The notes beneath the pieces are model-generated. The model searched no databases and was not told the origin of the DNA. It was given only the letters and a program-made list of their open reading frames with translations. From Podarcis cretensis (Eukaryota), in the NCBI GenBank assembly GCA_951804945.1, contig OX638157.1, positions 58,714,001 through 58,778,000 on the forward strand: a stretch of DNA of 64,000 bases. The letters run 5' to 3'. Both the position numbers and the translations under genes were made by a program. Every line of letters starts with the position of its first letter. Position 1 is the stretch's first letter. Shown piece after piece: positions 4,193 through 53,301 of this stretch.

Positions 4193-4864
4193 TACTTCCA
4201 AGGCCTTGGTATCATTCTTTCTACAATGCCTCATGGCAGTTGCTGTTCGAGCAATTCAGTCTTGCTATGGCTAACCTTTTTAATCATTTATGGAAAGCAG
4301 GCCCTGCGTTTCTTTCTCCTTTTCATCTTCCCTTACACGTTTTGAAGGATATTTTTGAAATGAGATTGCCTACACTGAGGGGGCTCTCCTGCAAGTGCCT
4401 GTCACTCTTTATCACTTTTAATATGTAGAAATTGCTCGGAGGAATTTCCATCCAGCCTTCTCACGGTCCATAGCATTGTTGGTATTATTGCAAACATCTG
4501 CTCAGAAGTAGGAGCTTTGATCTGGGACTGTTTGCTGAATTCAAGCACGGTGAGGGACAAAGCTGAATCGCTCACTTGGCCATGTGTGGCATGTTAGGAA
4601 AGTTGTGGTGTGTGCTGCCTAATTCCAGGCCCGCTAAAGTCAGTGGCTGCTTGTGAATGTCTGGATTGCAGCCTACGACTGCCATCAAAAGGACATTTGT
4701 TCTGTTGAAATCAATGATGTTTAATTCCAGGTAAGTGCCTCCGGAGGCCACCTTGGTCATACCTGTGCATATCAATCCTAGTGGTGCTACTGTGGCTTTG
4801 CAACATTTTTTCTTCTATATTTATTACAGTAATTTATATCCCACAGAAAACTACTCAAGGCAGG

Positions 4865-5291
4865 TGTAATGGGATAAGGGGTTGCTTGTGCGTAAGCGCT
4901 AAAAGGCTCCCAGTTTTGTAGTTAGTTTTAAACTCTCCCTAACCGGACAGCCATAAGTGCGTGGCTGCCTTAATCACTGGCAGAATCCGTCAGTGGGCGT
5001 TTCCTGAATTTCTTCCAACATAAGAGTTCTTTGACAGAAAGTCTCCTCCTTGATTCCCTGCGCGACAGCTTTCTGCGCAGAGTGGGCGTTCCAAGGGGAG
5101 GTCCTGAGCTCTCACCACTGGTCTTGCTTGAAGCGTCTCTGAGCCTCACCTCCGACGCTGTCTCCTCCTTCCCTCCTTCTTCAGCGGAAACTCTCTCTCT
5201 CCCCCTGCTGGTTCCCTCCTCAGCATCCGAGGGTCTCCCAGCATCCGAGAGCCTCTCCACCACCCTGAGCTCCGATGGCAGTTCCCTGACA
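4865..5291 (-). mobile_element. Solo-LTR-like element, copy 1, containing a conserved ORF
   Basis: TGTAATGGGA...TCCCTGACA termini, flanks gcagg/tcagg (5-bp TSD, 1 mismatch), homologous to 22119-22522. Confidence 0.8.
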
Positions 5292-5791
5292 TCAGGTCTC
5301 AATTTTAAAATATGTAGCGAAAAAATGCAAATAAAACATTGTTAAATATATTAAAATTACAGGAATTTAAAGACATTAGTATTTCGTTTTTTAAAAAGCA
5401 CGTTGGAATAAAACTGTTGCTTTTGCAAGTTATTATACAGCAATGTAATCTTGATGCACGTGCCTCTTTTGCTCCTCACAAGGTCTTTGCAATACCACAC
5501 ACTCAGGGTTTTTGTGCAGCGGCTGGATTGTTTTGCGAGCTGCAGTGCCATGCAGCAACTTTAAGCACTGCACCGACTGTTTGCCTTGTACTGTGTAAAA
5601 GCAAACACATAGTTAAGAGATCATTTGCTTGGGTAAACTTCAGTTATCACTGCCGCTTGTGGGGAAATGATGTCTAAAGTTTGGCTTCCTGTGGCTGCAT
5701 CCTGTACCCGCTTGCTGCATTGAACTCAATGGAAGTTAATTCCGAGAAGGCATGTATAGCATTGTGTAGGTTAGGAGAGTGTCCATTAGAC

Positions 5792-5927
5792 CAGTGTTTC
5801 CCAACCTTGGGCCTCCAGCTCTTTTTGAACTACAATTCCCATCATCCCTGACCACTGGTCTTGCTAGCTAGGGATGATGGGAATTGTAGGCCAAAAACAT
5901 CTGGAGGCCCAAGGTTGGGAAACACTG
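5792..5927. mobile_element. hAT-type palindromic MITE
   Basis: CAGTGTTTCCCAACCTTGG TIRs, perfect 8-bp TSD CATTAGAC. Confidence 0.9.
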
Positions 5928-5935
5928 CATTAGAC

Positions 5936-6062
5936 CATAGAATTATAGAGTTGGAAGGGACCTTGAGGGCTATCTCATCCAACCTGCTTCAATGCAGGAA
6001 AGTTTGGGGCTCAAACCCATGAGCCTGAGATTAAGCGTCTCATGCTCTACCAATTGAGGATA
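5936..6062 (-). mobile_element. tRNA(Lys)-like headed SINE with a CR1-type tail
   Basis: Minus strand reads TTGGTAGAGCATGAGACGCTTAATCTCAGG..., tail CCCTTCCAACTCTATAATTCTATG; a related truncated copy lies at ~7100-7210. Confidence 0.65.
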
Positions 6063-6148
6063 GGATTTCTCTCCCCTCCCAACTTATAGTTATTTCTTGA
6101 TTGCTGTAGAATTACTTCTTTATAAAGGCCAGCCTACTAATAACACAA

Positions 6149-6500
6149 GGGATGCGGGTAGCGCTGTGGGTTAAACCACAGAGCCTAGGACTTGCCGATC
6201 AGAAGGTCGGCAGTTTGAATTCCCTTGATGGGGTGAGCTCCCATTGCTTGGTCCCTGCTCCTGCCAACCTAGCATTTCGAAAGCACGTCAAAGTGCAAGT
6301 AGATAAATAGATACCGCTTCGGCGGGAAGGTAAACGGCGTTTCCGTGCGCTGCTCTGGTTCGCCAGAAGCGGCTTAGTCATGCTGGCCACATGACCCAGA
6401 AGCTGTACGCTGGCTCCCTCGGCCAATAAAGCGAGATGAGCGTCGCAACCCCAGAGTCGGTCACGACTGGATCTAATGGTCAGGGGTCCCTTTACCTTTA
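6149..6500 (+). mobile_element. Sauria SINE, full length
   Basis: tRNA-like head, GCCAACCTAGCA..GTAGATAAATAG core, ACCTTT tail, 12-bp TSD CTAATAACACAA. Confidence 0.92.
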
Positions 6501-7445
6501 CTAATAACACAAATACAGGTCATCAATACAACTGATTGCAGCGATATCCTTGAACGATATGCAACTGATGCATTTGAGAGACACAGGGAGTGTTTCTTTT
6601 CTAGCTCTCTTTAACAATTCAGTTGACAGAATGGATGGAAGTATCAACTATTCTAGACCTACTTTCCCCTCTAAGCAACTATCTGGAAATTGAGCAGGTG
6701 ATGTGCCTACACAAGAAGCCACCTTGAAACTCCTCAGCTCATGCCTTGAGGTTCATGATGGAAGAAAGATGGGATGTAAATTAAAGTGCCTGGAGCACTG
6801 GGCTGATGAGAAGTAAGGCAGGGATGTGGTAGAAATGTGCTGTTTCTTTTTAACCCACTCCCCACATCACATTCCTGCTTCGTATGTGAACTCACGTCTA
6901 CCATTGTTCTACCATGGGGTGTTTGTGACTTAGAGCCTCAGTTCTGAAGCTTTGCTATTCATCACTGCTTTTCGCTGTGGATTCTATCCAAAGACAGTCA
7001 TGTACATACTTGCTGCAGACATTCAGGGCACACACTGCTGAAAACTAGTTCCAGCTTTTCTTATGTAGCACTTGCTGGTTAAAACTTGACACTCTCAGTT
7101 CATAGAATCATAAAATTGTAGAGTTGGAAGGGACCCTGAGGATCATCTAGTCCAGCCCCCTGCAGTGCAGGAATATGCAGCTGTCCCATACGGGAATTGA
7201 ACCTGTAACCAAGCGGGCCATCCAGAGGAATGTCAGTAAAATGCCATAATCCAGATACGGACATCTGTACATGGCGGTAGGCTCCTGTGTAATGCTTCCT
7301 GGAGCAGGAACTGCGTTGTGCATCGGGATGTGAACGCTGTCTGTCAGAACAGCTTTTGCTTCCAGTGGATACATTACACCTGGCCCAAAGACAAGGATAA
7401 ACAACATTTTTCCGTGTATCTTTGAGCTTGGAATGCATAGCTCTA

Positions 7446-7687
7446 CAGTGTTACCTCGGGTTAAGTACTTAATTCATTCCGGAGGTCTGTACTTAATCTG
7501 AAACTGTTCTTAACCTGAAGCACCACTTTAGCTAATGGGGCCTCCTGCTGCCGCCGTGCCTCCGGAGCACGGTTTCTGTTCTCATCCTGAAGCAAAGTTC
7601 TTAACCTGAAGCAATATTTCTGGGTTAGCAGAGTCTGTAACCTGAAGTGTATGTAACCTGAGGCATATGTAACCCAAGGTACCACTG
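7446..7687. mobile_element. Tc1/mariner (Tigger-like) MITE family A
   Basis: TA-CAGTGTTACCTCGGGTTA...GGTACCACTG-TA; paralogs at 40166, 50775 and 58712. Confidence 0.88.
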
Positions 7688-9168
7688 TACTTGACTGAAC
7701 CGATTAAACTGATCAAAACTTCCTTGTTAGATATGCCAAGTTACCAAACTGGCTTTGTGAGTATGTATATAACATATGCCCAGTTTCCACAGGGAAAGAA
7801 GCCAAAGTGACTTCGCCTTTCATGTATAATGGGAAGGACTTATACGAATAGCAAAGCTCCCCCCCCCCTTGTTTGGCAAATAGGTGGGCACGCTCAGTGT
7901 CATCCAATCACCTGTGGCTGCTTTTCCTCCACCCCCTATGAGCAAGCAGCTCCACACCACCTCCCCTTTCTACTTTTAAGGCAGATGTTTAAGTAAAATC
8001 AGTCTGAACCGTTTGCTGCCTACAGATACAGAAATCCATATAATCTGAACATTATTGTTGGGTGAGTAAAGCTTGGGCTGAAAGTAAACCTGTATCGAAG
8101 TAGAAGCTTTGCAGCTTGGAAAACATTCATTGAAATGGTTTGTTGGTAGGAATTAGCAGTTAAGCGTACAAACTATATTGGAAACTATATTGAATGCTTA
8201 AAAGAAATATAGAAACGGGGTGTGGGGAGGAGGATTTTCTTCCTCAGGGAAGTGTCTGAAACTCTGATGGTGCTTTGCTTTTCTCAGTAAACACCTTAAG
8301 GATTCCACTGCTGGAATTTTGCAAAGATACTTATGTGCAGCATAGATGAAAACTGACAAATAATCTTGAAAATGTTTTAGCATAATTGAGCATCTGGGGC
8401 TGTCTTTTCTCCTTCTGCTGTAGCTTAATGGGCAGCTGTTCTAGAGTGATAAGGCTGGAAGGTGCAGGGAGGAGAACGCTTTGCTTTGGGATTCCCAGTG
8501 TGGCACCTGATGACACCAGGACAGCCTCTGGCACACAACCCACTCCCCTTGTACCTGCCAAGGCCTGCTACTTCTCTCAATTTTGCATTTTAAAAATTGA
8601 GGAGGGTTGGGCTTTTATTTTGGGGGTGGCCTGTTTTTTTGCCTGTGTTCCATTTGTTTTCAGTGTGTGTTTTGTCTGGCAGGATTCTGACAATCATCAG
8701 TTTTTCTTCTGTGAAATGGGTACCAATGACAGTTTCTTGGATTTCCTAATGTGTCTCCTGGGCCCAAAAGGCTGGGATCTCCAGGCTTAAGTTTCTAAAA
8801 ACTTTTTTACAAGCTGCAACATGCATGCCGTTGCTATTTTTCCTTCTTTTTCTTTTTTTCATTTTTTAAAAGTTAGAGGAAGAGCCCTGGTGGCAAGTTT
8901 TTTACGAGTCGGTATATCAGAAATGGCAATCGTATTATCAGCAGAAGCTTGCAATAGCAATTGTATTTACCTGCAAAAGTATTGCCTTTCGAAAGCTGTA
9001 AAATGTGATACCCTTCCATACCTGCTGTGTTCAGAACAGATGTTCGAGTACTAGGCATCAGAAATAACTGAATATTTATTGTGACTGTTGTCGTACTTTC
9101 ATAGGACAAGAGAGAAATGCAGCTGCAGCCCTATAAGAGTTATGGGCTAGGACTATCCTACTCTGGAT

Positions 9169-9909
9169 AGTTGAATTAGCTAGAGCATGGTGTTGATAAC
9201 ACCAACTTTGCAAGTTCAATCCCCACAAGGTTTTCAACCTTTTTGAGTCCACAGCTCCCTTAACCAACTACATTCTTTTTGCGGCACCCCTGTGGGGCTC
9301 AGGAGCCCAGTTATGTCACCCCTTTCCTGCAGAACTGGCAGCCCCTCACCCTTTCTTGAACACCCTCCCTTGTGGAGTGTTCCCTCAGCCTCCTCTCCCC
9401 TCTCCTTGGGAGTCCTCTGTGCAGCTGCTGCCACTGTCCCTGGTCTCTGAGCTGCCCTCCTGCCCCAATGAGAGGTGCCTCCTCGCACTGCCCCACAGGG
9501 TCTGGGAATTGTCTGTCCATTCCCAACAGCAAGGCCTGGTGGAGTGGCTGGCTGGGCTCCCTCGCCCGCTTGCTTGCTTACTCCAAGGCCACCTTAGCTC
9601 CTGGCAACCAGCACTCCCCTGGCCAGCCCAGAGTCACCATTCGCCTGGGGAGCCTTTAGCCAGGGCTGCTGCAACAGCTTTGCAATCCTCTGGGAGGCAG
9701 AGACTCAAGAGGGCATGGGGGCAGGGGGAGGAAAAAGGGACAGAGGCCAGTGTTGCCCACAGCACCCCTGACCATCATTCAAGGTGCCCCAGGGTGCCAC
9801 AGCACACTGGTTGAAAACCACAGCCATTTGGGATAGCTGCATATTCCTGCAATGCAGGGTTGGACTTGATGATTCTCAGGGTCCCTTCCAACAAGTCTAT
9901 GATTCTATG
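9169..9909 (+). mobile_element. tRNA-headed/CR1-tailed SINE split by a ~600-bp hAT-like element (9226-9823)
   Basis: Head TAGAGCATGGTGTTGATAACACCAA..GTTCAATCCCC; insert bounded by GGTTTTCAACC/GGTTGAAAACC; tail ...CCCTTCCAAC..GATTCTATG. Confidence 0.7.
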
Positions 9910-9945
9910 GTTGCGAGGGCCCTGTGGATTATAGAACATAAATTG

Positions 9946-10299
9946 GTTTTTTTAAAAAGACTTTTTTTATTAAAAATTAAAACAAAACATATTATCCAGA
10001 AACATATCATCCTTATTTCCCCCCCACCCTCCCACACAAAACCCACCCCCCCACCCCCCGACTTCCCTCAGTTCTAGTATTTGATTTCTCTAAGAATGCT
10101 GTTTTCTGCATGTTACACATGTATAGATCCTCAAACTATTTAGCTGATTATTATCAATAAAAAGTTTGTGAATGTTTATTCAAAGCCAGCCAAGGAGTCC
10201 AGTTCGCTTTGTTATGTCTTCAAATACTTTGTAAAGGGTTCCCATTCATCTTTAAAGTTGCAGTTATCCTTGTCCCATAGCTTATATGTCCCGTAGCTT
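9946..10299 (-). mobile_element. 5'-truncated L1-like LINE 3' end
   Basis: Minus frame TYKLWDKDNCNFKDEWEPFTKYLK resembles an L1/Tx1 ORF2 C-terminus; 3' UTR and A-rich tail; TSD AT(A/G)GAACATAAATTG at 9931-45 and 10331-45. Confidence 0.75.
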
Positions 10300-10330
10300 A
10301 TACTTACCTGGCAGGGGAGACAACTTGATA
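10300..10330 (+). pseudogene. U1 snRNA 5'-end fragment
   Basis: ATACTTACCTGGCAGGGGAGA matches U1 nt 1-21 exactly; partial match continues to about nt 30. Confidence 0.85.
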
Positions 10331-10911
10331 ATGGAACATAAATTGAAGGACGTTAGAGGGTAGAGTTGGTTTTGTTTTTTTAGTTTAGATTGTGAAGGTT
10401 AGAGTAGAAACTCCTATCAAGATACATTAGCAGGAGTAGGAATGCATAGACTAGTGAGATTAAATTTATTGCAAGAGCAGAGGGAGCTCTCATGTGGCAG
10501 AGGCTAGTGGGTGTTGTGAACTTTGTGTAATTTAGATTGGCTGCCTTTGGAACAGCAAAGTAAATGGTGCAATAAAACCTGTCCACAGAAAGCAGGAATA
10601 ATTATGTATTTAAATGAATGAGTAACTACTGACATCCTAATTTTTGTGCAATATGGTATGCTTTGGAAAAGAGGTAACAACTTGGATTTTAAGTTGTTGG
10701 TATTTAGTAGTAGTACAAAAATGTGTTGAACAACATTTTCAGAGTATACCACAGACATATGCAATAGAAGGATGTTCATCTATCATCAAACCAGTTCAAT
10801 GGTTTTTAATTTCAGTTCATAATGCTTTGCAACAGATGTGGTTTGCTAATATATATAAATTTACTGATAACACTTACATACTATTGGCTTTCAAACCATA
10901 GAATGTTAAAA

Positions 10912-11008
10912 CAAAATTTAAAAATTCCTTCCAGTAGCACCTTAGAGACCAACTAAGTTTGTTATTTTGTTTCGGCTACAGCAGACCAACACAACTACCT
11001 ACCTGTAA
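10912..11008. mobile_element. Penelope-like terminal fragment
   Basis: AATTCCTTCCAGTAGCACCTTAGAGACCAACTAAG; TSD CATAGAATGTTAAAA; homologous to 51473-51635. Confidence 0.6.
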
Positions 11009-11584
11009 CATAGAATGTTAAAATACAATAATGATAACAGAATAAAAAGAGTAAACAGATAATGGATTAAAAATTGAATGTTGTTGTTTTTATATAAAAA
11101 ATCAACAGAAAGTTAAATAGCATAGTGACCTAGACAGTATTACTGATATAAAATTCAGAGGATTCATGATTTCACAATTTAAAAGTTTGAATTGGTTTGG
11201 GTTTTTTAAAGTCTGTACCTGGTGCCTAAAATGAAATAAAGTTTATTCTACACCTTGGGACAGGAGCGTATTTTAGCAGCAATTTGTGCAAAATGAATAG
11301 GACTCTGTAGTCAGTGACTCTCTGCTGCAATGTCATGTCGGTGAGCATTGCTGTGCTATGCAGCTTTTTATCTGGTGGATAAAACTGTGTAATTTTTATT
11401 ACATATAAATGGTGGGTGGCATCTGCACAAGTCATGCATTGACTAGACCTATTGGAAATGGGACTTCTACCGTCATTGATCTCATTGGATCTACTCTTGA
11501 CTTAGTCAGATGGCACTCTATGGCAAATTTGGAGGATTGCAAAATGCAGTAATCTCTCTTATTTTTCAGGCTCCTTCATCCAGA

Positions 11585-11960
11585 ATGATAACCTGTGGAC
11601 CAGCCTTCTCGTTCGCCCGGTGCCTCTTGCGGAGAAAAATCGTCACTGTGGACAGCCTTGAAGATAGCAAATTATGCCGCTGTTTATCCACCATGGACCT
11701 TATTGCCCTGGGAGTAGGAAGCACCCTCGGTGCTGGCGTTTACGTCCTAGCTGGAGAGGTTGCAAAAGCAAATTCCGGACCTAGCATTGTTGTTTCTTTC
11801 CTCATAGCAGCCTTGGCTTCCGTGATGGCAGGGCTTTGTTACGCAGAATTTGGTGCTCGCGTTCCAAAGACTGGCTCTGCCTATCTGTATACGTACGTCA
11901 CTGTTGGCGAACTCTGGGCTTTTATCACTGGCTGGAATCTCATTTTGTCTTATGTCATAG
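11585..11960 (+). CDS. SLC7A2: SLC7A2 (cationic amino acid transporter 2) coding exon 1; acceptor AG at 11568-69, ATG at 11585
   Basis: [20 protein letters not shown]...[24 protein letters not shown]...[10 protein letters not shown]; donor GTGAGT at 11961. Spliced CDS totals 1980 nt (659 aa with the 2B exon). Confidence 0.97.
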
Positions 11961-13976
11961 GTGAGTTTGGAAGACCTCGGAGGCTCTTAAGAAAACGCCA
12001 ACCACAGCCTACTTGGCTTTTGTGACCTGGCTGCTGTTCATAACTGGAGTAATCTTCCGCTTTCATGCATAAATGTGCACACAGAGAGGGGGAGAACACT
12101 TTTGGGGGGACATGCTCTCGATGTTCCTGACCTTTTGGTGGCTATTGGCAGCAGTGTGAGTGGGACAATATCCAGCAGCCAGCAAAATGAGAAGGGAATA
12201 GAATTGCAATGCACTGAAATGATGAGAGGTGAATGGCATATGGGCTAGGAAAAAGGTTCTTCAAGCACAAGAATAGGATGTGGATCCCTGTAGTGGTTAT
12301 GGAAACCAAAGGAAATGAACCATAGTCATATTAGTTATTCTCTTGGTGTATGTGACTAAATTAAATATACCACTACACTACATGACGATTTGACTTTTCA
12401 GGCATTAATGAGCTCAGGTTCTTACCTTCTGCATTTTATTTTCAAAATTTACCCTATAAAGTTGGTTGGGCTGATGTGACTTGCCCATTGTCAACCTGTA
12501 AACAAAATTGCTAGTGGAGAATTGACCTCTTGCCTCCCATGTCCCACTCCAACACTTTTTCTACTATGCCACACTTGTGCACAAGCCACGTGTAGATTCC
12601 AAAGATAAAATTATGCTCTCTGAGAGGTCAACATCAAACAATCCCCAGATTGCCTTTGATGACATGCCTCTTTTGACAAGGAGGACAAAGCCTTTGATGT
12701 CACTGCAAACATCCAGCATATTTTCTAAATAGTGGTATAGATAGTTTTTTTTTTTTTTTTTTTTTTTGCAAATAAATAATTTTTGCTAATATAATTCTTA
12801 GAACAATTACTTGGTTTCTCTTGTCTTCAACCGTTGTGTGAATAATGTTGGGTGTGTGGTGCAGCATTCATCTTCCTTTTGAAGACAAAGCAGCAAGAGT
12901 TTCTCAGATTGTCATCGAACATGAGGCCCCCGTGCTTATTCCTGAAATTCTCACTGCATAGAGCAACCAGTGTGGTCCTGGGAATGTGCACGCATGGAAG
13001 AAGCAGTTTCTGACTCTGTGTTAATGTGAATAACTGCTGGGAATTTGCAGCCAGGACTAGGCAAATGCAGAGACCCATTTCTCAGTCACTGCCAGGAAGC
13101 AACAGCTGGGACTGGGGGACATGATTGGTTAGGCATTGTTCCTCCACATGGGTATATCCCTTGGGATGCTCTGCATGGAAAACGCTTCACAGTTCCACCC
13201 AGTTGGTTGCTGTAAATATTAAATAAATTAACTGTTTGTGCTGTCAGTTGGTACAATGTTGTTGCTAGAAATAACAATACAATGCATTGCAACAACAGGG
13301 CACCCGTGAAATAAAGTCATAGCATGTAGAAAAATGAACTCACGCTGTAGCAAAAAAAAAGAAGAAGCACTAAATAGACTGAAAATGCACATTTCCTCGT
13401 GAAGCATGTATTCTAAGAAGAATGTAGAGTTTTTGACAAGATTTCCAGAAAATGGGGTAAGGCCAATGCTATTCCCACTCAAAGTAGATCCACTGAACTT
13501 ACTGGAAATGGCTGACTTAAATTCATTAATTTCAGTGTGTCAACTTTGAGTAGAATTAGCACTGGGTACAATTTGCTATCTCATTTCATTGCTTCATCAA
13601 AACCAACTTAGAAATGAGGAATTTCTCATGGTAACAGCTGAAAATAACCTTCTGGCCTGTATCGGGTCTCTTCCAAAAAACCATATTATCCGATGTGAGT
13701 CATCTGCAGTTTCCCAAATGGGGATTTATTGTTTCCAAAATAGAAATTTATTCCCAACATTAGGAAGGGGCACAAGGCTGCAACATAACACAAAACCACA
13801 TCCAGAATAGAGAAGAGCAGAGATATGGCCTCAATAGCCCAATATGTATCAATAACAGCGAAAGATTCCACAGCATTAAATATATAATAATGCCTAGTAA
13901 ATACATGTAGGTTTTGTCTTTTACAATTCTTATAATTGCATTGTGATGTCCATTGTTTTTGTTCCATTTCATTAAG

Positions 13977-14132
13977 GTACATCAAGTGTAGCAAGAGCGT
14001 GGAGTGGTACCTTTGATGAACTCCTTGGGAAACAAATTGGTTACTTTTTCAGGACCTACTTCAGAATGAATTACTCAGGTCTAGCAGAGTACCCAGATTT
14101 TTTTGCTGTCTGCCTTATATTGCTCCTAGCAG
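13977..14132 (+). CDS. SLC7A2: SLC7A2 coding exon 2
   Basis: [22 protein letters not shown]...[16 protein letters not shown]; AG/GT borders, 156 nt, phase consistent. Confidence 0.96.
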
Positions 14133-15363
14133 GTAAAATATATATACTTAATATTCATTTTTCTTATCGTCATTTTGTTAATGGGGAAATTCTGCCCAGA
14201 TGGCAGGGTATGTTTAGCCTCAAGCATGACGTATCAGCAAGTTTAGGAATCCCATCAAGCTGTGGGCCAAAAAAATTGGTTCTAGTTTTTATTCTGTCAT
14301 TTTTGTTTCCTTTTGAACAATATCTTCATACCTCAGTTTAGGTCTATGATATCCTAATTTCTAGTGGAGCTCACACATGCATATCCTTGCAATTCTAGAT
14401 TATAATTTATTGAACTACTTGTGGAAATGTTTGTGCGTGTACTGGATATGTATCATACAAGGGTACAATCTTTAGGAAATGAAAATGAAAATTCTAATCC
14501 AGTGCAGCCCATTTTTGAAGAAATGTTTATTTTAAACATATTCATTACTGGATTAATCTGCTCCAGTAAAAGTTAGCAAGAGTAGCTAGATAACTTTGTT
14601 CTTCATATCATTTATATTTGTAATAATATAATAATAATAATAGTTGTTGTTGTTCTTTTATTTATACCCCACCCATCTGGCTGGGTTTCCCCAGCCACTC
14701 TCAGCAACTTAAAGCATATGTAAAAGCATAATAAAAACATCAAGTGTTAAAAACCTCCCAAACAGGGCTGCCTTCAAGTGTCTTCTAAAAAATAATATTA
14801 ATTGTATTGCTTTTGGTCAGAAAAATAGACTTAATGTCAGAGATATAAGTTTGAGCTCTCGACTATTGCCTCTTCTTCTCAAGCCAGGGCTGGTCCACAC
14901 ATTCACTAGTCTAGGAATCTCATATGCATAATGAGTAAGAAGCTTATGCCCATGTTACCTGTTGCATGTACAATGCTATGCCCTTCACGGGTAGATGCAT
15001 ATGTACAATTCCAACAATCTCCCTAACTCGAAGGCCATGTGGAATTTAAAAATAATCACCATCAGGTAGAGTTGTGTTGTGCGTGTGCTGGTGGATATAA
15101 GGCCATTTGCTTCTGACCTGTGAAAGGGATTTCTAGGTGGAGCTTATCTCCTATTCTGAGGTCATGTTTACATCCCCAGAGAAAAATATGGACTTGAATG
15201 CTTTCTGTGTGTACAGAATTTCCAGCTTGGTGAGTCTGTGAACCAGCCTTATGAGATAGCTCATGTAAACAAAACATTATCAAATTGTAATAAGCATACT
15301 ATTAGAAATGCTAACATGTAGACCTTAATCATGTTACTTAATTTAAAAAATATTGTTTTATAG

Positions 15364-15529
15364 GCCTATTATCATTTGGAGTCAAAGAATCTGCATGGGT
15401 GAATAAAATCTTCACTGCTGTTAACATCTTGGTCCTCCTCTTCGTGATGACTTCTGGTTTTGTGAAAGGCGATCTTCATAACTGGAAGAAAACAGAAGAA
15501 TTTCTTATAAACTACACAGTATACATAGA
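15364..15529 (+). CDS. SLC7A2: SLC7A2 coding exon 3
   Basis: [42 protein letters not shown]...; 166 nt, AG/GT (not in the ORF track). Confidence 0.94.
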
Positions 15530-16425
15530 GTAATACAGGGTTTTTGTGTTTGCTTTACTGCTTTGGTTGCTTAGAATGGAGATAATAATCTATAAGCTAT
15601 GTGATGGGATTTATCCATGTTTTAATAAAAATAAATGTAACCTTTTAGATTTAATGCCCAACTAACAGTTGCATCGTCAACCGAGAGTGAGAAAAGCATT
15701 TTATTTTATTTTTGGCTAGAGGTCAGACATTTTCAATGTCACATTTTGGTTGTAATATCCTGGCTTGATCCAAAGCTGGAAACCATAATTTCCAGCTTTG
15801 GGTGAAAAAGGAAAGCAGTAAATTACAGGCTTCCTGATTTAATCACCTCAAAAGGGAAAACAGAAAAGCAAAACAGCTGCTTATACAGGCAAAGGGTTTG
15901 TGCATTTCTCATCTTATTAGGCCAACATCATCATCCAAGCTAGTTCATTATGGTCCTCATAGGCAGTTCATTTTTCATGCAGTGAATACTGCTAAATACC
16001 ACATCCGTACGCAGGGAAACTTGTCACAGAGCTGCAAAATCCCTCTGATAGCAATAAGTAGCTAAAAGTGAGTTCTAAATGTCCTGACATTTTCGGTGCT
16101 TAAGTCCAAACCTGCAATTTCAATGTGCATTGGGCTTTGAACCCTGCACTGTTTCCATGCTCAGCTCATATCTTTCTGTGCTACGTATGGGAACAGTCAT
16201 GGCATCGAGACTTTAAATGTATTTGGGGGGTGGTTCTGACACTTCAGGAAAAAGGGCAATAAAGCAAAGAATAAAAAGCACCTGTGCACAATTAACCTTT
16301 GATTTATGTGTGTGAATGTTGAGAGCCACTGTTGTGCACCCAACCACTCAAGTTATGATGTGGGGTTTGTAAGTCCCATGCCTACACAGGATACGACGTA
16401 ATGATTATTATTTGGGTTTTTTTAG

Positions 16426-16562
16426 AAACCTGTCATCTTCTGAAAATGTGACAAGTGCATTTGGAGTTGGTGGCTTCATGCCATATGGCTTTACAGGAAC
16501 ACTGGCTGGTGCTGCAACCTGCTTTTATGCTTTTATAGGATTTGATTGCATCGCAACAACTG
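16426..16562 (+). CDS. SLC7A2: SLC7A2 coding exon 4
   Basis: [45 protein letters not shown]; donor GTAAGC. Confidence 0.95.
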
Positions 16563-18263
16563 GTAAGCTGCCTTTAAAAAAAAGGGCCATGCAGTTGAAG
16601 TTGTGATTTACATGTGCTGGAGCTGTAGTGTAAAACCACTGTGTTCCTATAGCATGATCCTATACATTTTAGAGAAAGACCTGCAGACGCAATGCTAGAG
16701 TGCATGCTTTGCATTCAAAAGGCTCTTGGTTCTCAGGGTTGCTATATTTCAAAAAGTGACATGTGTTGCCATACGTCCAGATTTTCCAGGACATTTTGAC
16801 AATTTCCACCCAGACACTGCTTCCGAATGCAGCATTCCAGATATGTCTGGGGAATTCTGGACTATGGCAACCCTATTGTTTCTTCACTTGATGGTGTTTC
16901 CAGTTAAAAGGATTTCCAGTAGCAGGGCTGAAAGAGACCTTTGCTTGAGTCTGTAGGCAGGTTGCTAAGCTTTTTGGACCTGTGGGCACTTTTGCAAACT
17001 GTACACACAGAGATGAGCAGTCACACTGCAGCCTATTCTACTGGCTACAACAGAATGCTTCTTTCAAGCCTAATTTTCAGCAGGGGGGAGGTGGAGGTAA
17101 CCCTGTGATCATTGTGGAGGGTCTCTGTGGGCGCATGTGTGCCCACAGGCACTATGTTGGCAACCTCTGTTATTACTCCAGGTAAGCATGCATAGGGGTT
17201 GCAGAGCAGAAGCCACCAAACACTCTGATGCAATCTTTGTTCATTCCTCTCTTGGCCTGAAAATCTTACCAACTCTGCCCCATTCATTCTGTATCACAAA
17301 CAGAATGGCAAGATCTGTTTCTTGCCGCACTTTAAAATCCATTCAGCATGATAATCTGTAATTGACATAAATTACATAGGCCAAAGGAGAGACATCTTGT
17401 CCTCCTTTTTAATTTGTTGCATGTTCTAAAAAGGCATTAAATCGGTTTTAAGAACCATGTTATCTGTCTCTCCAAGGCATATATATTAAGTTCTACTTTG
17501 TGACTTCATGCTCAGTCGCCCCTAATAATTGGAAATATCATGCGTAGGCTCAGTACACTGAGAACCTCTAAAACCTGCTTTCTCAGCCAGAGGTAGCATA
17601 CAGTGTTTCTATGGTAGTTTTTTTCCACTCCTACATTACACCATTTGCTCCCTCACTTGGCTTAGAGTATTCACAAGTTTCTATCAAAGAGCTATGTTTT
17701 CATTTCCTCTTCCTCACTCCCTGTATCATCCAGGCTGGTTTGTTTGTTTTTGGCCTGTAGCAATTTTTTGAACTTTCATTGCAATCACAGACCAATCCTA
17801 TCAGACAAAGCACTTTTATCTTACCTGGTTTGAAGGTGTTATTGGTGACCCTGTAGTAGTGCCTCTGTGCTTTGCTTACCTGCCCACTATCCCTTTTCCA
17901 CTACCTGTTTGACGACACCACCCTTTTTCCCCCTCTCTCTCTCAGCACAATAGCAGTTATTTCTGAATTAGCATGCGTAGTACTGTGCTGCTGTGATATA
18001 TAAATTGGTGTATTTTAAAATATCCCCCCCCCCGGCCAATAATACTTGTTTTTATCTTCACAAATCACACAGAATTCAATTTAGACCAGTAACTTGATCC
18101 CATCTGGAGTTTCTGTGTTTTTCAGTACTCCTGCTAGATAAAAAGTAAAGTCTTTTGTATAAAAAATAAATCTCACTTTGCCCAAGTGGACACACAATCT
18201 CACTGTTTGCCATCTTCCGTACTCTTATTCACACTAAGAATAAAATGTCGTTTTTCTCCATAG

Positions 18264-18486
18264 GGGAAGAAGTCAAGAATCCCCAGAAAGCCATACCTAT
18301 TGGGATTGTAACTTCCTTGCTTGTCTGCTTCTTGGCCTACTTTGGTGTTTCAGCTGCTTTAACTCTGATGATGCCGTACTATTTAATTGATGAGAAAAGT
18401 CCTCTCCCTGTAGCCTTTGAGTATGTCGGATGGGGCCCAGCGAAATATGTTGTAGCAGTGGGATCTCTGTGTGCTTTATCGACAAG
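18264..18486 (+). CDS. SLC7A2: SLC7A2 coding exon 5
   Basis: [40 protein letters not shown]...[10 protein letters not shown]; 223 nt. Confidence 0.97.
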
Positions 18487-20715
18487 GTAAAAATAAGGAA
18501 AACTAAGTCATTGCCAGGAAAATGGAGCTATTTTTAAAAGTTTTGATTCATTAGGTTTGCTAAACAGAGATGTTTAGAATAATAATGTAGTTTGTTACGG
18601 GTCAAATGTAGCTCAGCTGTGTAAGTCAACTATTTAAGTTCTTATTTTGTGAACTTTTTCCTTGTGAAAGGAAAAGTTACGTTCATGAGTTCATCTCTTT
18701 CTGCCTGTGCTAATTTATTGACCATCATATTTGCTGAATATTGTTAAGAATGCACTGGAGTAATATTAAAATACATGTAGTAGTGTGGGTAATGAAAGTA
18801 TATTTAAGTACTTTTTCCAGGCTTGGATTCTTGGGGGTTTTTTGGGGTTTTTTTTTAAAAAAGCATATATTGAAAATGCATGTTTTAACATAATTTTGGT
18901 GTAAAATCAGGGGAAGTGTAATTTTGCAGAAACCTTATGCTCAAATTTGTCTGAACTATCCAAAATCCATCATGAAAGTGTCTGCATTTCTAAATATAAG
19001 CATGTACTAAAGAAGCTGCATCTAATTTGGGCTTCATAAATCACTTACACTGGCTGCGTTTCCACTTGAAGTGGCTTTACCATAGGAATCATAAGGTTGG
19101 AAAAGACCCCCACGATTATTAGGACCACCCTTCCTGTCCTACTCAGTTCAAAGTAAATGTGGCTTAATTGCAAATTGCTCAAGCAAGCATTTAGTGCAGG
19201 GATTCAGTGTTTTTAAAACTTACCAGGGCTGTACAAGCTTCCTAACATTTGCATATGCTTATTTCATTAACAGTGCCGAGGCTGCTTAGCTGATATGGCA
19301 TTTAAAATCATACAGTTTAGCATACACTGTGACCTGTTTAGCATCCTGCAGCGAATTAAGTAAGATGTCACGTTTACTTCACTTTTGTCAAATGCAGACA
19401 TATCACACCTAGTCGCTTGATCATGTCCCGGTGCCTCCATATGGGCTTGTTGCAGCAGGGACACTGCATACAAGCTGACTGGGATTAATGTTTACAAGAG
19501 AGCAGGCAGACCTTGGGCCACCCTGTAAAAGACCCATAAGATATCTGGGAATCTGGCAATGTGCAGATTCTGGAGCAGACCCCAGTCCAGTCCAAGTCCA
19601 GGAGGATTGGATCACTGGGTCTGTCAGATTGTTTCACCAATCCTATTTGGCATGAGGGTTCCGTTAGAACACAGATTGGGCAAAGAGGTACTTAACAAGA
19701 ATGAAGTTTTAGCCTTAAATGACTTAATACATGATATAATGGGTTTTTGGCATTTTAAGAAAGTGTTTTCTGATATTGCCTGTTTCAATCCTGCTGCCTG
19801 GTGCAATCATTCAAGGTGCTGGTGACGCTTAATTGCATTGCAAGTATTACTACATGTTTTCTACTGGTATACCATTTTGGGGGGAAACTGCAGTGAAGGC
19901 TCAAGTTTCTTCAGTTTTGAGTATTTTACTCCAACTGTTACAGGCATTCTAAAATCATAAATAAAACAAATCACATGATCACAAGTGACTAATGGTGTAA
20001 TATATAGCATTAAGATATTAATAGTTAAATTGATAGATTTTTCAGTCAATTAAAAAAAAAAGTAAACCACAAGAGTTACCATTACAATTCACCAGGTTAA
20101 TCTAACATTTTGGGGCCTTCCTCTGCAAACCTGGAGGTTTTGTGTCAGCAGCTTATCTTTGAAATATGGGTAGGAATATTACCGTAATTCTGCCTTAATC
20201 ATTGGCATAGGACAGATCACTTAATTAGGTTTGAAACAAACCTCTCTTCAGAGGATATAGGAAATAACGACACAAGAATTTTACTGTGAGGACCCTGCAA
20301 CGCCCAAGTAGAAAAGTGTAGTTGAGGTTCCACCCCTCCAAATATTGTGAGGAAATCTTTGTGCCTGTGACAGATGCAATGTGATCTCTGTGGTGAAGAA
20401 GGTGAGGGTGTTGCTCCATACAGAGAAATACATTCTGTGATCCCTGAAAGTGTTTGAAATACTGTAGACCATAAAGGCTGCAAAGTACTCTGTGCATTAA
20501 AAAAAAAAAAAGCCTGCACACAATATATAAAAATTAATTGAATGGTTGAAGAAACTTGTGTCTTAACTGCAGTGTATCTCATGTACAATTTTATCTCCAT
20601 CCCATCCCACATTTCTGGTATCGTATGCTGTTAATTGGCCTTGTTTCTTTTTTGCTCTAATGCATTGCATGACTTTGTGTTGGCCATGTTGCATGTTCTT
20701 TTGCTTTTTATCCAG

Positions 20716-20855
20716 TCTCCTTGGATCCATTTTCCCAATGCCGCGTGTAATCTATGCTATGGCGGAGGATGGGTTGCTTTTCAAATGTCTAGCTCGTATC
20801 AATCCCAAAACGAAGACTCCTCTTGTTGCTACTTTGTCATCAGGTGCTGTAGCAG
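20716..20855 (+). CDS. SLC7A2: SLC7A2 mutually exclusive exon, CAT-2B (high-affinity) type
   Basis: [47 protein letters not shown]; 140 nt; the MAED and IN residues are typical of CAT-2B. Confidence 0.95.
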
Positions 20856-21131
20856 GTGAGGCTCTAAGCAAATTTATTATCAGGAAAAGGGACATCTTCA
20901 CCCATGATCAAATGTAGATTCTGAAGCAGTTGCAGCTCAAATGATAAAATCTGAATCTCAAGAGTTCAACTATTAAACCTTTGGTGTTTGTTTCCAGCCT
21001 CGCTTTTGGTTATTGGAAGTGCATTTTACACATATAGTTTCCCTTTTCTTCCCATGTCTGTGTTTTGGATTGTCTGTTAGTGCATAATATTCTTACTGTG
21101 GCATTTGAACAATTACATTTTTTTGTTCTAG

Positions 21132-21268
21132 TCTTCTGGGCTCTATGTTCCCTTTGCCCCGCATTCTGTTTGCCATGGCACGAGATGGTTTACTCTTTAG
21201 ATTTCTTGCCAAAGTGAGCAAGAGGCAGTCTCCAGTTGCTGCCACAATGACAGCAGGGCTCATCTCCG
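21132..21268 (+). CDS. SLC7A2: SLC7A2 mutually exclusive exon, CAT-2A (low-affinity) type
   Basis: [46 protein letters not shown]; 137 nt, same phases as the preceding exon; MARD Arg and a 1-aa shorter loop as in CAT-2A. Confidence 0.95.
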
Positions 21269-22118
21269 GTAAGCTCTTAAAGCAGGTCTTGCCTAACTGG
21301 GACCTCAACCCCGTTTTCACGTGCAAAATTTATGTTAATAAGATGGGCCTGCTTGCTAACTTCCTGTGCATGCAAATTGGGGACAAAACTGCTGACTAAT
21401 CAGAAGAAGCAACAATTCTGAATTGTGGTGGCGGTGCTGGTGCTGGTTGTGGAGGAGCAAGCTCATTGGAGGACCTCTCCAAAGCTTTCCTCTGCTGTGA
21501 CTAATGGTACCTTTTTATGCATATGCAAAGAAGGAAGTGTGGGTGAATAGCTATAAAACGTCCTTGCTTTCTCATTAAATTTTGCCATTTGGGCTATTTT
21601 CATCCCAGCCTTTCATATACTTCCTCTATAGTTAATATGTTGTTTAAAGTATATTTGACAATTTAATAACTGCAAATGTAGCATGAAAAGTATTCCCCTC
21701 CCCTGCCAATATGACATTAATATCTAAAGCTCAGCATAGATAGTCCCTCCATCTTAAACGGTGTTAAGATTAAATGTCTGGTTTTTTAAAGATTAAATAT
21801 TTAATACATGTCAATACCAACATATAACTGCTAATTATATTTTGCTTATAACTTTTGATGGCTAATGTTTGCAAAAAAGAAAGCAGATAAACAGAGGTGT
21901 CAGGATAGGTAATTTAGAGAATAACCATTTTCTTAAATTGTGGACTTGGTGCAGTCTTCCAAATCTTGGTTGCAGTTTTCTGTGACTTCAAATGAAAATG
22001 CAATGACACCTCTTTGCTAGCTTCTAACTTTTCAGTATGTTAAAGCTAGACTTTGTTTATTCATAGTGATATAATTGTATTAAGGTTAAACGGTTTTAAG
22101 TTAAAAGTGTAAGTGATA

Positions 22119-22522
22119 TGTGATGGGATGATGAGCTGCTTGTGCGTAAAAGCTTAGTCCCTCAGGGTTTGCTCAGCTTAGCAAAACTCTGTCTTTAGCG
22201 GAGCCCTTAAGCATGGCTCCCTCAGTCGCTGGCAGAATCCGACAGTGGGCGTTTGCGGAATCTCTTCCAACATAAAAGCTCCTTAACGGAAACGCGTCTT
22301 CTGGACTCTCGGCGTGACAGTTTCCGGCGAGGTGTGGGTGTCCCTATAGGAGGTCCTGAAACCTCCTCACTGTTTTCGCTGGAAGTGTCCCAGAGCCCTT
22401 TTTCCGACTCCCTTTCCCTCGGAGCTCCTTCTCTCCCCCTGCTGGTTCCTTCCTCTGCTGTTAAGTCTCTCCTAACCTCCTTGAGCCCTTCCACCACCTG
22501 CTCTGATGGCAGTTCCCTGACA
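22119..22522 (-). mobile_element. Solo-LTR-like element, copy 2, containing a conserved ORF
   Basis: TGTGATGGGA...TCCCTGACA termini, perfect 5-bp TSD TGATA (22114-18 / 22523-27). Confidence 0.85.
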
Positions 22523-23500
22523 TGATACAACTGAACCAATAGCAAGTTGCCCCTCTGAAATAAACACTGTAAAGACATCTCTGTGTCCCTCAAAATCATG
22601 ACTTCTAGCATTAAGCATAGTTACACATTGAATGTGCACCAGTTCATAGTTCCCTTGTAAACTATAATTTGAAGTAGGATTGCAGACTATTTTTTGGAGG
22701 GACATAAGCCATGGTTTGTTTTGATGCACATGCCATACCATGGATAATTGTAGCCTGGGAAGGGGACATAGTTTTGCTAGAGACTGGCTACTGATTTTAA
22801 ACCCTTGGTTGCAGGCAGCTAGCATGACCTCTGCAGAATACAACAGTACTGGGTTTTGTTTTGTTTTTCAAAAACTTTTTTCATCTGTGCCTTGCATAAG
22901 CCCTCAAATACTTTTGCTTAGTTTTAACACTGTTTTAAAGAGGGATTATCTTTTATGAGTGCTTGAAAGCTCAACACTTTTAATTCATTGCATGAGCTTT
23001 GTGTAGTAAAAGAAAAGAAGCAAGATTTGATATGGGCACAGCGTACCAGGAACATTTCCTATTTTTGCCTTATTAAAATGAGCCAGAAACAGCTTGCCAA
23101 ACTCCCATTTTATAGCATGGGAGATGCTCACAGTGTATTTTGCCTATTATGTCTATGCATGTATTTAAATTAATGGTGTCTGTCATGCAAAATGAGTTTA
23201 TACCATTTTCTCATGTGAAAGCCAAGTATTGAAACTACTGTGTAATGCCCTGATGGCACCAAATTTCAGAGGGGAATTAACTCAGTTCCCCTGAAGGTTA
23301 TAAAATGCTACTGCATTACTAAAATCTTAATTTTGGCCATAAAACGTTTAGAAGACAATGGTTTGCTTCAAATTGTATGAACGTTTTAAAGACCCTTAAG
23401 GGCAAGCGTTAAACGTTAATGGAGATGGTAGCAAATATTCATTTTCAGCTTAATACAGACATGTTTTTAATACTAGCTCTGCTTTGTCTTGTTTTTCTAG

Positions 23501-23603
23501 CTCTGATGGCTTTTCTCTTTGACCTAAAAGCATTAGTAGATATGATGTCCATTGGTACGCTTCTTGCGTACTCGCTAGTAGCAGCGTGTGTCCTCATTCT
23601 TAG
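23501..23603 (+). CDS. SLC7A2: SLC7A2 coding exon 7
   Basis: [35 protein letters not shown]; 103 nt. Confidence 0.97.
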
Positions 23604-24930
23604 GTGAGTTCTAATTTTGGGTTATTAACTAATTTGTTAGGCAATGTTGTCTAAATCCTTAAATGTTTTTGTTTCTGCCATAAAGTTATATATACATGAA
23701 ATTACACAAACAGACAGGATAGCCTTCAAATGCAGATTGTGCATGAGAGCAACTACCTTAGTACTTTTTAGAAGTTCACATTCCACTGCTGTACAAGTTT
23801 AGGTACTGCTGTAAACCGAGGAATGGGAGAATAAAAGTTGCTTGGCATCTAGGGCAACTTGTATGAAATAAAGCTCTGTTGTATAGTGGTTCTCACCTTT
23901 AAGTGCTTCTTTAATGCTTTCCATATGATGTTAGACTGCAAATCCCATCATCCCTCACTGGCTGGGGATGGTGGCAGTTGCCATTCAGCAACCACATTGG
24001 ATAGTTACCTTTTCGGAGCTTGAGACAGAGAAATGCTCAACACTAAGGCACCTCTAAGCTAGAAAGAGATGCTTTCTTAAAATAGCTGTGGCCTAATAAA
24101 TCTTGCATGCAAATTCTGTCTTCCATGCATCTTTGGTTCGGTAAAGCAGACCTATCTCTTGTGGTCTAATCCCAGCTCTGATTCCTTATAAATATCCTGT
24201 GGACTAGGAGTTCGCCCCTTTGGTTGTGCTCTGCTCCTGGGGCTGATGGGTTTACCATATTGAGGGATTTCTGGGGCCAGTGGTGCCGTTATTGAGAGTT
24301 ATAATGCATATGAAGGGATTCACCATATATTGGCCTTTCTGGTTAGGCCAGAAATGGTCATTAACAGCCCCCATACATGTCAGGCAACCCTCCTGCAATT
24401 TCCCAAGGAAAACACTTGAGTGTTTATGTGGGGGGGTGCTGCTGGCCAATGCTGCCTTTGGACACATGGGCTGCCTTCAGTCAGTGGTGCCCAGTGCTCA
24501 TCTGGTCTTTCCTGGGGGGTGGGGAGGGAGGCTAGGCAGTGTAATAGCCAGCATTGTTGGGTGCCACTGCCCAAAGACATGCAGGACTCCTTCAGGCAGC
24601 GATGACCAATACTTCCCCAGATGTGACTGATGCTGGCTTCTTTCCCTACTTGCTGTGCATCTTTGAAACATTAAGAGAATCTGGACCTGAATGTCCTTCC
24701 TGTAATATGCAGATTTCAGTGACTGTAAGACTGCATATTGGTGGCAACTCTGGCTCTATTGCCTGAATTAAATATCAATAACAAATGGTGCAATAATGCC
24801 ACCCAAAATATAGAGTCATGTCTTTTCTTGCTGTAGGCCTTGTAGATTATAATACATTGTGCCTTTAATTTTTATTTTCTGTGAACCTCACCATACACAA
24901 ATGTATTTGTGTGTGTATGTGCACAAACAG

Positions 24931-25133
24931 GTACCAACCCAGTTTAAACTATGAACAGCCAAAATATTCAGCAGAAAAAGAGGCTCTTGCGGGATCAGAG
25001 AGAGAAAGTACGAATGAATCTCAAATGAGTATGGTACCAGGACACAGTTTCAGCTTACAAACACTGATTAATCCATCAAGTTTGCCCACGGAACAGTCTG
25101 CCACCATGGTTAGCTTTCTTGTATGTCTGTTGG
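24931..25133 (+). CDS. SLC7A2: SLC7A2 coding exon 8
   Basis: YQPSLNYEQPKYS...LPTEQSATMVSFLVCLL; CAG/GTAAGT borders. Confidence 0.94.
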
Positions 25134-25480
25134 GTAAGTCAAAAGCTATCTAAATACTTGGACTATCTCGGAAGTGTCAACTGATAAGCAAAATGCATTG
25201 AAACAAAATGACGGATCAGATTCACTTATTCTTTTGAACTTGTCCAAAATTTCAAGTATGGAAAAAGAGGGAGAGGAGCCTTTGCATCCCCAATTAATTG
25301 GAGTAAACATGACTGCAAGTCTAATTTTGTTTTGACAGCCTAATTCAAAACAAAGGAATGTACAGTATTGGTTTTTACCTGTCAATATTGCTGAAGCTTT
25401 ATGTCACTTAAACATTTGAGATTTTGAAATGCTCTCTTTGTTGTTGTCCCCCCCCCCCCATTTTGATTGCCTCTGTTTAG

Positions 25481-25647
25481 CTTTCCTGATTTGTGGCTTA
25501 AGCATTCTGGCCACCAACGGGATTCATCTTCTTGCCAATCTGGAGCCTTGGAGTATTTGTCTCTTTGCAGTACTTTCAGTGCTGTTTATCACCATTGTAC
25601 TTGTCATCTGGAGGCAACCTCAGAGTCAGCAGAAAGTAGCATTTATG
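25481..25647 (+). CDS. SLC7A2: SLC7A2 coding exon 9
   Basis: AFLICGLSILAT...VIWRQPQSQQKVAFM; 167 nt. Confidence 0.95.
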
Positions 25648-26374
25648 GTAAGCAGTGGTGATGGTAGTGGCATCAAGTGCAAAACCTCACAAACAGGTTT
25701 TTTTTGGGGGGGTGCTGCGTGACTAGCTGCCCTTCTGGAGATTACCACCCTGTCACTTTAGTGGCTACCTTTCAGTTGAATTAATAAATTAGCTGTTGCC
25801 TTAAAAAGAGCTTGACTGATATGGTGTTAAAGTTGCTTTTTGTGGCAAGCCAAAATAGTGGTTCTTGTGCAAATTTGGCCTTGACTGTAGAAAGAGTTGA
25901 GAATTCATTTTTACTACAACTGAAACGTGTAAGATTAGATGAATTTTTTTTTAACAATCTTTTGATTGATTGAAGATTAATTGGGCAACAGATCTTTAAA
26001 AAATTTGTTTGTTTTTAATGCAAAAGCTGTGGACCACAAGATCCGCGTTCCTTATTTTATCTTTCCCTATTTTCCCTTGTGCATATATAATAAAATCTTG
26101 TGTAGCCCATGTGTGTACTACCACTAAATTGTGGTCCTCACCTTCCCATTGCAGGCCTATCAAAATTTAATTCATTAGTTCTGCATTTAAAATGCATTAT
26201 AAGTAGGTAATGTGTTCATTGCAACTGGACTAAGACACTTTGCCCTATAACTTTTATTTTATTTTCAAAATATGGATGTGTCAGTTCAGTAGAGCCCCTT
26301 TACAAATTTAATTAAAAGTATGACACACTGGATATTTGTCAAAAACACTGAATTGTAAAAAAAATTGTCCTTAG

Positions 26375-26483
26375 GTTCCACTCCTGCCATTTTTGCCATC
26401 TTTGAGTATCTTGGTGAATATTTACTTAATGGTACAACTAAGTGGAGAGACTTGGATCCGGTTTAGCATCTGGATGGCGATTG
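26375..26483 (+). CDS. SLC7A2: SLC7A2 coding exon 10
   Basis: [36 protein letters not shown]; 109 nt. Confidence 0.96.
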
Positions 26484-26771
26484 GTAGGTATTATGTAGCT
26501 GAATGTTGTTGTGAACTTTTTCTTGCCTCCCCCCTAAGCAAGGGCAAAAGCTTAAAAGCCATTTTCATACTGGGTGACCCAAGCGGATATGGTGCAAAAA
26601 GAGCATTTAGGCTCTTAACCTTGCTTGCTGGGCAAAGCCTGCTCAGCATGCAGGTTCTAGAAGCAGCTCCAAAGGTTTGACTGGACACAATTTTTGCACA
26701 TCCGCATACGTCTTGGAACTGAAACCCCACATAAGATGAGGGATTTCTGTATATAATTTTTGAGAGTAGTA

Positions 26772-35856: not shown

Positions 35857-36089
35857 GCTTAGGCGCCAAACTCTGCAATAACCATTCCTGCGGGGGCACT
35901 AAAACACCCTTCATTAATGAAAGTCCATAAAAAGCACCTGCCAGCACCAGAAATTCAACGGCTGCTTAAAAAACAGGTGTTGTCCAGGACTGATAGCGCC
36001 TCTCCTAGTCCAGCTCAGCTGAGGCCAATGTGGATGGGATTAGCGCAGGCTTGGTGGGAATAAAGATATTGAAAACAACCACCACCACC

Positions 36090-41148: not shown

Positions 41149-41297
41149 ATTTCACCAGAAATAATACTGTCACATAGCCTTGGCCAGAGGGAGTTAATAA
41201 ATAATTATGTAAAGGCAGAACTGACTGTACTTTTAATGTGTTTGTGTAGTATTAGACCAAAATGCCAAAATGCCTGACTATAAAAGTAAGCGAGGTA

Positions 41298-53256: not shown

Positions 53257-53301
53257 TTGAACTAGGATACCAGGTCTGCAAATCATGATTGGTACAGATA
53301 T

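Follow-up and report, generated by a model that had tools for sequence, protein, structure and literature searches.

Two solo long terminal repeats (LTRs) in a 64,000-nucleotide stretch of the genome of the lizard Podarcis cretensis (contig OX638157.1, positions 58,714,001 to 58,778,000; here called the window) derive from an abundant, recently active Ty3/Gypsy chromovirus of the Tf1/sushi type, and the open frame found on the minus strand of each is almost certainly a genuine part of the integrase of that element, i.e., a C-terminal tail overlapping the U3 region. Taken as a whole, the observations are probably best explained by a chromodomain-bearing Ty3/Gypsy element whose pol tail extends into the 3' LTR and likely serves nuclear entry and chromatin tethering.

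The LTR frame and its parent element

LTR 1 (427 bp, positions 4865..5291, minus strand) represents a subfamily with a Thr-type self-primer and is flanked by GCAGG (4860-4864) and TCAGG (5292-5296); LTR 2 (404 bp, 22119..22522, minus strand) belongs to a Ser-type self-primer subfamily and lies within a perfect target-site duplication (TSD), TGATA. Both have TG...CA ends and are open on the minus strand from base 2 of the element, LTR 1 over 106 codons (4973..5290, without Met, TAA stop at 4970-4972) and LTR 2 over 99 codons (22225..22521, TGA stop at 22222-22224). The last 45 codons form a conserved Arg/Lys-rich terminal module, in LTR 1 at 4973..5107 and in LTR 2 at 22225..22359 (minus strand), a putative nuclear localization signal (NLS) or chromatin-binding end. 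Between the two copies of the module 19 codons are identical, 21 differ synonymously and five non-synonymously, 40 of the 45 residues being the same, with four AGR/CGN switches; the differences fall 7/2/23 on codon positions 1/2/3, and the proportions of synonymous (pS) and non-synonymous (pN) differences calculated by NG86 are 0.69 and 0.071, a pattern far above chance. A preliminary description of the window, made from its letters alone, had given the same coordinates, termini, 5-bp flanks, frames, and codon counts. Over their whole length LTR 1 and LTR 2 are 70% identical. LTR 1 shows 98.4-99.1% identity to solo, 5' and 3' LTRs at other genome sites, and LTR 2 99.8-100% identity to other LTRs in the genome; since each has such near-identical relatives (98-100%) elsewhere, the divergence of the two lies between subfamilies and did not arise on site. 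They are members of two different subfamilies. The frame of LTR 1 is severed from pol, and solo LTRs, as leftovers of recombination, would not produce the tail on their own.

A genome search with the frame of each LTR gave at least 150 scored matches per frame, out of 8760 and 7287 candidates at first look; these figures do not represent copy numbers. Many matches are paired about 5.1 kb apart, the downstream partner lying within a long open frame, and direct repeats were present at 33 of the 35 paired loci fetched. Two-LTR copies with gag and pol were thereby recovered, in agreement with the earlier reading of the repeats as parts of a lizard LTR retroelement and with the recovery of full-length elements proposed along with it. 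The 31 elements parsed, 28 of them with a perfect 5-bp TSD, represent a family with two-LTR elements of ca. 5.5 kb and LTR pairs 92-100% identical. The Pfam domains come in the order Retrotrans_gag, CCHC, then protease (PR), reverse transcriptase (RT), RNase H (RH), H2C2, rve, SH3_Tf2-1, and Chromo, those from PR through Chromo sharing one frame that ends inside the LTR. The Ty3/Gypsy assignment comes from the two LTRs, the TSD, a polypurine tract (PPT), gag, and the pol order PR-RT-RH-integrase (IN), and the chromovirus assignment from PF00385, found above its cut-off at the integrase C-terminus, together with HP1 matches; the chromodomain is devoid of the first and third of the three aromatic residues of the HP1 cage. 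In four of the five copies checked pol overlaps the CCHC-encoding gag in the -1 frame, the fifth copy being broken; a pattern search in these five copies found no standard slippery heptamer.

A chromodomain integrase, a self-priming primer-binding site (PBS), a U5-leader duplex, a CCHC gag, and a -1-frame pol, by which the Tf1/sushi group is defined (bioRxiv 10.1101/2022.12.06.519325), are common to the chromoviruses of this group, a cluster of fungi and vertebrates with Tf1 and sushi-ichi, and to the lizard family, which differs by ca. 200 residues following the chromodomain, half of them LTR-coded, with FxGF motifs. The phylogenetic tree comprises lizard copies and the unnamed protein P0150 only, two rows having dropped out. 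In another young subfamily, long open pol frames are present in many copies. The nearest named relatives are gene models of Podarcis muralis: the UniRef models called 'Gypsy retrotransposon integrase-like protein 1' belong to the same family and, though generated automatically, already contain the tail; their names are machine-given, and the tail, the motifs and the LTR overlap bear no annotation there. The search of representative proteins gave two matches, of which P0004 belongs to the family and the other is an unrelated repeat protein. Similar sequence was also found in contigs of four runs, which shows its presence only and nothing on expression or starts.

In the full-length elements the frame runs ca. 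100 residues past the chromodomain, crosses the PPT and continues for ca. 100 codons into the 3' LTR. A survey covered 87 3' junctions, 79 of them with a recognisable chromodomain upstream; in 58 of these 79 a single open frame joins the chromodomain to LTR codon 1, and in 47 it stays open to the end of the module. For loci found by domain search only, i.e., not selected on the LTR frame, the respective figures are 26 and 20 of 42. The length from the LTR start to the primer site comes in seven main classes and is a multiple of three in 169 of 183 LTRs, as it is in 41 of 53 LTRs of the unbiased subset; the lengths of the remainder of the LTR beyond the primer are spread 44/47/92 over the three mod-3 classes. 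The earlier proposal of an open reading frame (ORF) that comes into the LTR out of the internal region and takes up about 75% of its length is borne out by the continuity of pol at the junctions, where the pol frame crosses the PPT into LTR codon 1.

Two identities had been offered for this frame, a C-terminal extension of integrase and an accessory protein, of which the first stands and the second is unsupported owing to the continuity with pol. That the LTR frame, or the frame antisense to it, encodes an accessory protein of its own, comparable to nef or sag, is very improbable. One frame on the antisense strand contains no stop in any copy of the subfamilies of the window (38/38 and 69/69), and some subfamilies have an in-frame Met, but the sense frame continues that of pol, the antisense frame, which was rejected, is closed in every copy of five of the nine clusters, and the in-frame Met is nearly absent from the subfamilies of the window (2/38 and 1/69). 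Moreover, U3 accessory genes of the nef/sag type have their own ORF with its own start or splice, whereas the lizard frame is joined to pol and has no conserved Met. A phospholipid-transporting ATPase gene model of P. muralis (P0151) ends in the LTR-coded module, being either a prediction artefact or a case of an exonised LTR.

Constraint at the protein and RNA levels

Selection was estimated from 11 natural copies giving 44 between-subfamily pairs; in these pairs, which are non-independent and have pS near saturation, dN/dS is 0.05 in the IN core, 0.07 in the chromodomain, 0.11 in the first FxGF motif (see below), 0.15 in the U3 part of the terminal module, and 0.5 in the variable LTR part, while for the second FxGF motif, where dS is saturated, pN/pS is 0.22. 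The module has a pS of 0.67 vs a pN of 0.22; its synonymous sites vary freely, those in the Leu and Cys codons of its LLCW sequence among them, with switches between TCN and AGY and between AGR and CGN codons. As this synonymous variation extends throughout the module, its constraint is at the protein level, and the pattern of substitutions points to purifying selection on the Arg-rich protein sequence. In its middle the LTR frame encodes a spacer of variable length and mildly acidic composition. A reading of LLCW as a TATA-like signal was dismissed because its Leu and Cys codons vary.

Self-priming would set the layout of the LTR and accounts in part for the extreme end of the frame. In 38 of 53 elements the 11-nt stretch that begins 2 nt past the end of the 5' LTR is the perfect reverse complement of an LTR-internal site at about position 280-300, as expected of the Tf1/sushi mechanism (bioRxiv 10.1101/2022.12.06.519325, PMC4600332). 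The PBS/primer pair exists in three co-varying versions (18, 16, and 4 elements), and the remaining 15 of the 53 elements are off by one base. The U5-leader duplex, whose versions also co-vary, has a median of 8 bp vs 6 in shuffles. Of the three-duplex 'pretzel' 5' structure two, the central and the U5-leader duplexes, are observed. In LTR 1 the 11-nt self-primer site, complementary to the PBS of the element and the putative start of R, is found at 4984..4994 (minus strand), and in LTR 2 at 22236..22246 (minus strand), with one base unlike LTR 1 that is matched by the PBS of its own subfamily; the Thr/Ser difference between the two modules is this primer variant. In codons -9, -8, -7, and -5, counted back from the stop, synonymous sites do not vary, and codon -6 tracks the primer version, which places the end of the module under RNA-level constraint; the last ca. 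9 codons are fixed partly at the RNA level. The mRNA would start at the self-primer site, in which case U3 would be coding throughout and the frame would end ca. 7 codons into R. A short hairpin follows the stop in most subfamilies, with differing sequences (folds at 4940-4970 and 22190-22222 of the window, minus strand).

These invariant codons, with the low pS (0.20) of the first LTR codons and the weak constraint on the middle of the frame (dN/dS 0.5), are what could be expected if the frame ran on passively into a purine-rich LTR that is free of stops, its conservation being due to promoter and RNA-priming signals. For the feature as a whole such an origin is highly improbable, being largely refuted for the module by the excess of pS over pN, by the AGR/CGN and TCN/AGY switches and by the length of U3 in threes; it holds for the last ca. 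9 codons only. The strong purifying selection claimed in the preliminary description thus stands for the module as a protein, with a dN/dS of ca. 0.15 and not near 1, and its assignment of this selection to the active elements and not to the window copies is supported; for the last codons the claim has to be reduced, since the amino-acid identity noted there is partly due to the self-priming RNA site and not to protein selection. The RRxS 'kinase motifs' named in the same description are only partly kept, one Ser being Gly in three of the nine clusters.

Proposed function of the tail and related families

Between the chromodomain and the PPT, just upstream of the LTR and beyond the coordinates of the preliminary description, there are two helix-compatible stretches ending in Phe, each followed by 8-9 acidic/Ser/Thr residues and an FxGF sequence. 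Two FxGF per tail were found at 55 of the 58 in-frame junctions, and both complete helix-acidic-FxGF motifs in 14 of 15 tails, while per 2000 shuffled sequences a single motif turned up 0-7 times and a pair never. [quoted passage not shown] The motif class binding the integrase-binding domain (IBD) of LEDGF is listed in ELM as LIG_LEDGF_IBM_1 (PMC10767929). The lizard tail shares with the TIM of IWS1, JPO2, and KMT2A the hydrophobic-anchor helix, the 8-9-residue acidic Ser/Thr linker, the FxGF, and the tandem pair, and differs in being situated in a retrotransposon integrase and known from sequence alone. A host gene encoding a LEDGF/HRP2-type binding domain is present in the genome. The helix of the motif is weakly predicted (H58-66 at a pLDDT of 40-45), the AlphaFold model of chromodomain plus tail has a mean pLDDT of 43, and the complex prediction for the lizard PSIP1 domain with motif 1 scored 0.18 against a mark of 0.34, which counts neither way. 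The ESM Atlas contained no usable match for the tail, the matches of the motif regions being under 0.9.

The LTR-coded end has a net charge of +13 to +15 (two most basic 20-residue blocks, one copy) and of +11 in another copy, with a spacing that we take to be that of a bipartite NLS. The integrase would thus carry a tail of ca. 200 residues, probably disordered, which would stay on the mature enzyme and likely act in nuclear entry and chromatin tethering. On the sequence evidence a role of the tail in targeting is likely. Of its parts, the Arg/Lys-rich LTR-coded end is fairly probably a bipartite NLS and/or a nucleosome/DNA-binding arm. The FxGF motifs may bind a domain of the TFIIS-N-terminal type, likeliest that of LEDGF/PSIP1 or HRP2, and so tether integration to transcribed chromatin, a proposal to which we give somewhat less than an even chance. 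The lack of two of the three cage aromatics in the chromodomain would favour a second tether. Lentiviral integrase contacts the LEDGF domain through a folded surface and not through a linear motif of the TIM type. The host domain bound is the same for lentiviral integrases and TIMs (PMC9987994). A short part of integrase binding a host chromatin or transcription factor directs insertion in Ty1 (AC40), Ty5, murine leukaemia virus (MLV; BET), and Ty3 (TFIIIB) (PMC11054761; 10.1101/2021.07.27.453949), from all of which the lizard tail differs in its proposed partner and in being partly LTR-coded.

Relatives of the family retain parts of this architecture. P0150 (67% integrase identity) has one FxGF motif, a long run-on, and basic residues with LLCW at its end; its tail has no match in the P. 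cretensis genome. A family of the same genome with 58% integrase identity (L223, L227-L261) has one clean helix-acidic-FxGF motif directly after the chromodomain, a 102-codon LTR run-on extending past the primer site, a self-primer match of 10 nt near LTR position 274, and AATAAA. A similar motif occurs in L250/L260, a further, decayed relative. A more distant chromovirus (L182-L211, L224, L225, e.g., G000:C12:54328500-54336500; 47% pol identity, LTRs of 600-650 bp) has a run-on of 115-117 codons with a 10-nt self-primer match and a stop just before a TATA-like word; its Arg-rich end contains RRSARL, which matches the HMGN acidic-patch motif (PMC13347269), and its chromodomain keeps the cage aromatics. 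With two distant families of the same genome running 102-117 codons into the LTR, the run-on is not peculiar to the family of the window, and a coding U3 with a basic end looks like a shared architecture of these lizard elements. The rarity of coding LTRs assumed in the preliminary description is weakened in the same way, long run-ons being less exceptional: plant CRM group A elements, centromeric retrotransposons that are the established precedent, encode a targeting motif (CR motif/CHDCR) in the 3' LTR (PMC3059260), and some Reina chromoviruses also extend into it (PMC3605345). The likeness to CRM group A, compared by description, is limited to the LTR-coded integrase end, since there the CR motif replaces the chromodomain, whereas the lizard family keeps a chromodomain upstream of the PPT and self-primes, the plant cluster being primed with tRNA (bioRxiv 10.1101/2022.12.06.519325). 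Among the leading full-text literature matches, a scope that leaves subscription papers, Repbase and Dfam outside, no paper was found that deals with sushi-type elements of vertebrates having an integrase tail encoded in the LTR, nor with FxGF motifs in a retrotransposon integrase.

A link between loss of the cage and gain of FxGF would rest on one contrast and is a lead only. It enters a more elaborate and still tentative scheme, which we consider possible but doubtful: methyl-lysine reading by the chromodomain would have been swapped for mimicry of a linear motif of the host, with one or two true LEDGF/HRP2 motifs and an LTR-coded basic arm, the tether thus reached being that of HIV, and with all of U3 doubling as promoter and coding sequence, whereas the sister family keeps the cage and ends in RRSARL instead. 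It is unlikely, to our judgement, that the tail is integrase-coded without any role in site targeting, the basic end serving just for nuclear import as an NLS, or binding nucleic acid without specificity, and FxGF having other partners (intramolecular, a Gag/RT contact, or a TND other than that of LEDGF/HRP2). Consistent with this are the Arg-rich ends of unrelated sequence that close the run-ons of all three families, the degeneracy of motif 1 in three Podarcis gene models (P0001-P0003), the lack of any Pfam family in the LTR-coded frames of LTR 1 and LTR 2 (0 matches), and the PDB sequence search with the motif regions, which gave one chance match only. Against it, the strict spacing of helix-Phe, linker and FxGF is maintained down to 58% integrase identity, and the FxGF part is tied specifically to LEDGF/HRP2 in the source available (PMC9987994).

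Several points weigh against an LTR-coded integrase tail with tethering motifs. Out of the 79 junctions 21 are out of frame, presumably through post-insertion decay. The search pattern for helix-acidic-FxGF was fixed after the sequences had been seen; P0001-P0003 have L or M in place of the first Phe in motif 1; and the profile of motif 1 has no PDB sequence match at E<=10, though the PDB holds LEDGF-motif fusions. The L182-L211 family has the run-on but no FxGF, and the motif is therefore not required by all such elements. The tail could be cleaved off integrase, and the selection estimates come from the non-independent, nearly saturated pairs mentioned above. Finally, a search of the terminal 125 nt in 185 LTRs gave neither AATAAA nor ATTAAA, which bears on the presumed R/U5 layout.

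Genomic surroundings and significance

Exon-like frames of an amino-acid permease gene, presumably SLC7A2-like, extend over 11501-26677 (plus strand) of the window; the frames 20567-20914 and 21109-21396 match the same part of the profile, as alternative exons would. LTR 2 lies in an intron of this opposite-strand gene, between the exon-like frames 21109-21396 and 26375-26677, and LTR 1 lies upstream, ca. 6 kb before the first coding frame to be identified; the two insertion sites are uninformative on targeting. An Ig-like exon of the VEGFR-1 type, which we assume to be PDGFRL-like, is located at 54339-54743 (plus strand), and a 231-codon open frame with CENP-B_N and Tc5 helix-turn-helix (HTH) domains, resembling a pogo/Tigger transposase, at 63221-63913 (plus strand). 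Short interspersed repeats of several families, partly palindromic and similar to miniature inverted-repeat transposable elements (MITEs) or short interspersed elements (SINEs), occupy 5791-6500, 30020-30323, 34656-35857, 41296-42120, and 50772-58940.

The family shows that the length and sequence of an LTR can be governed by protein constraint, and that solo LTRs of such elements carry coding sequence that leaks into gene models, as in P0151. For the choice of insertion sites by vertebrate Gypsy elements, a young multi-copy lineage here supplies short candidate tethers, with a natural control in the family of the same genome that has no FxGF motifs. If the motifs bind LEDGF/HRP2, a mobile element would have reached the integration cofactor of HIV a second time and independently, by motif mimicry.

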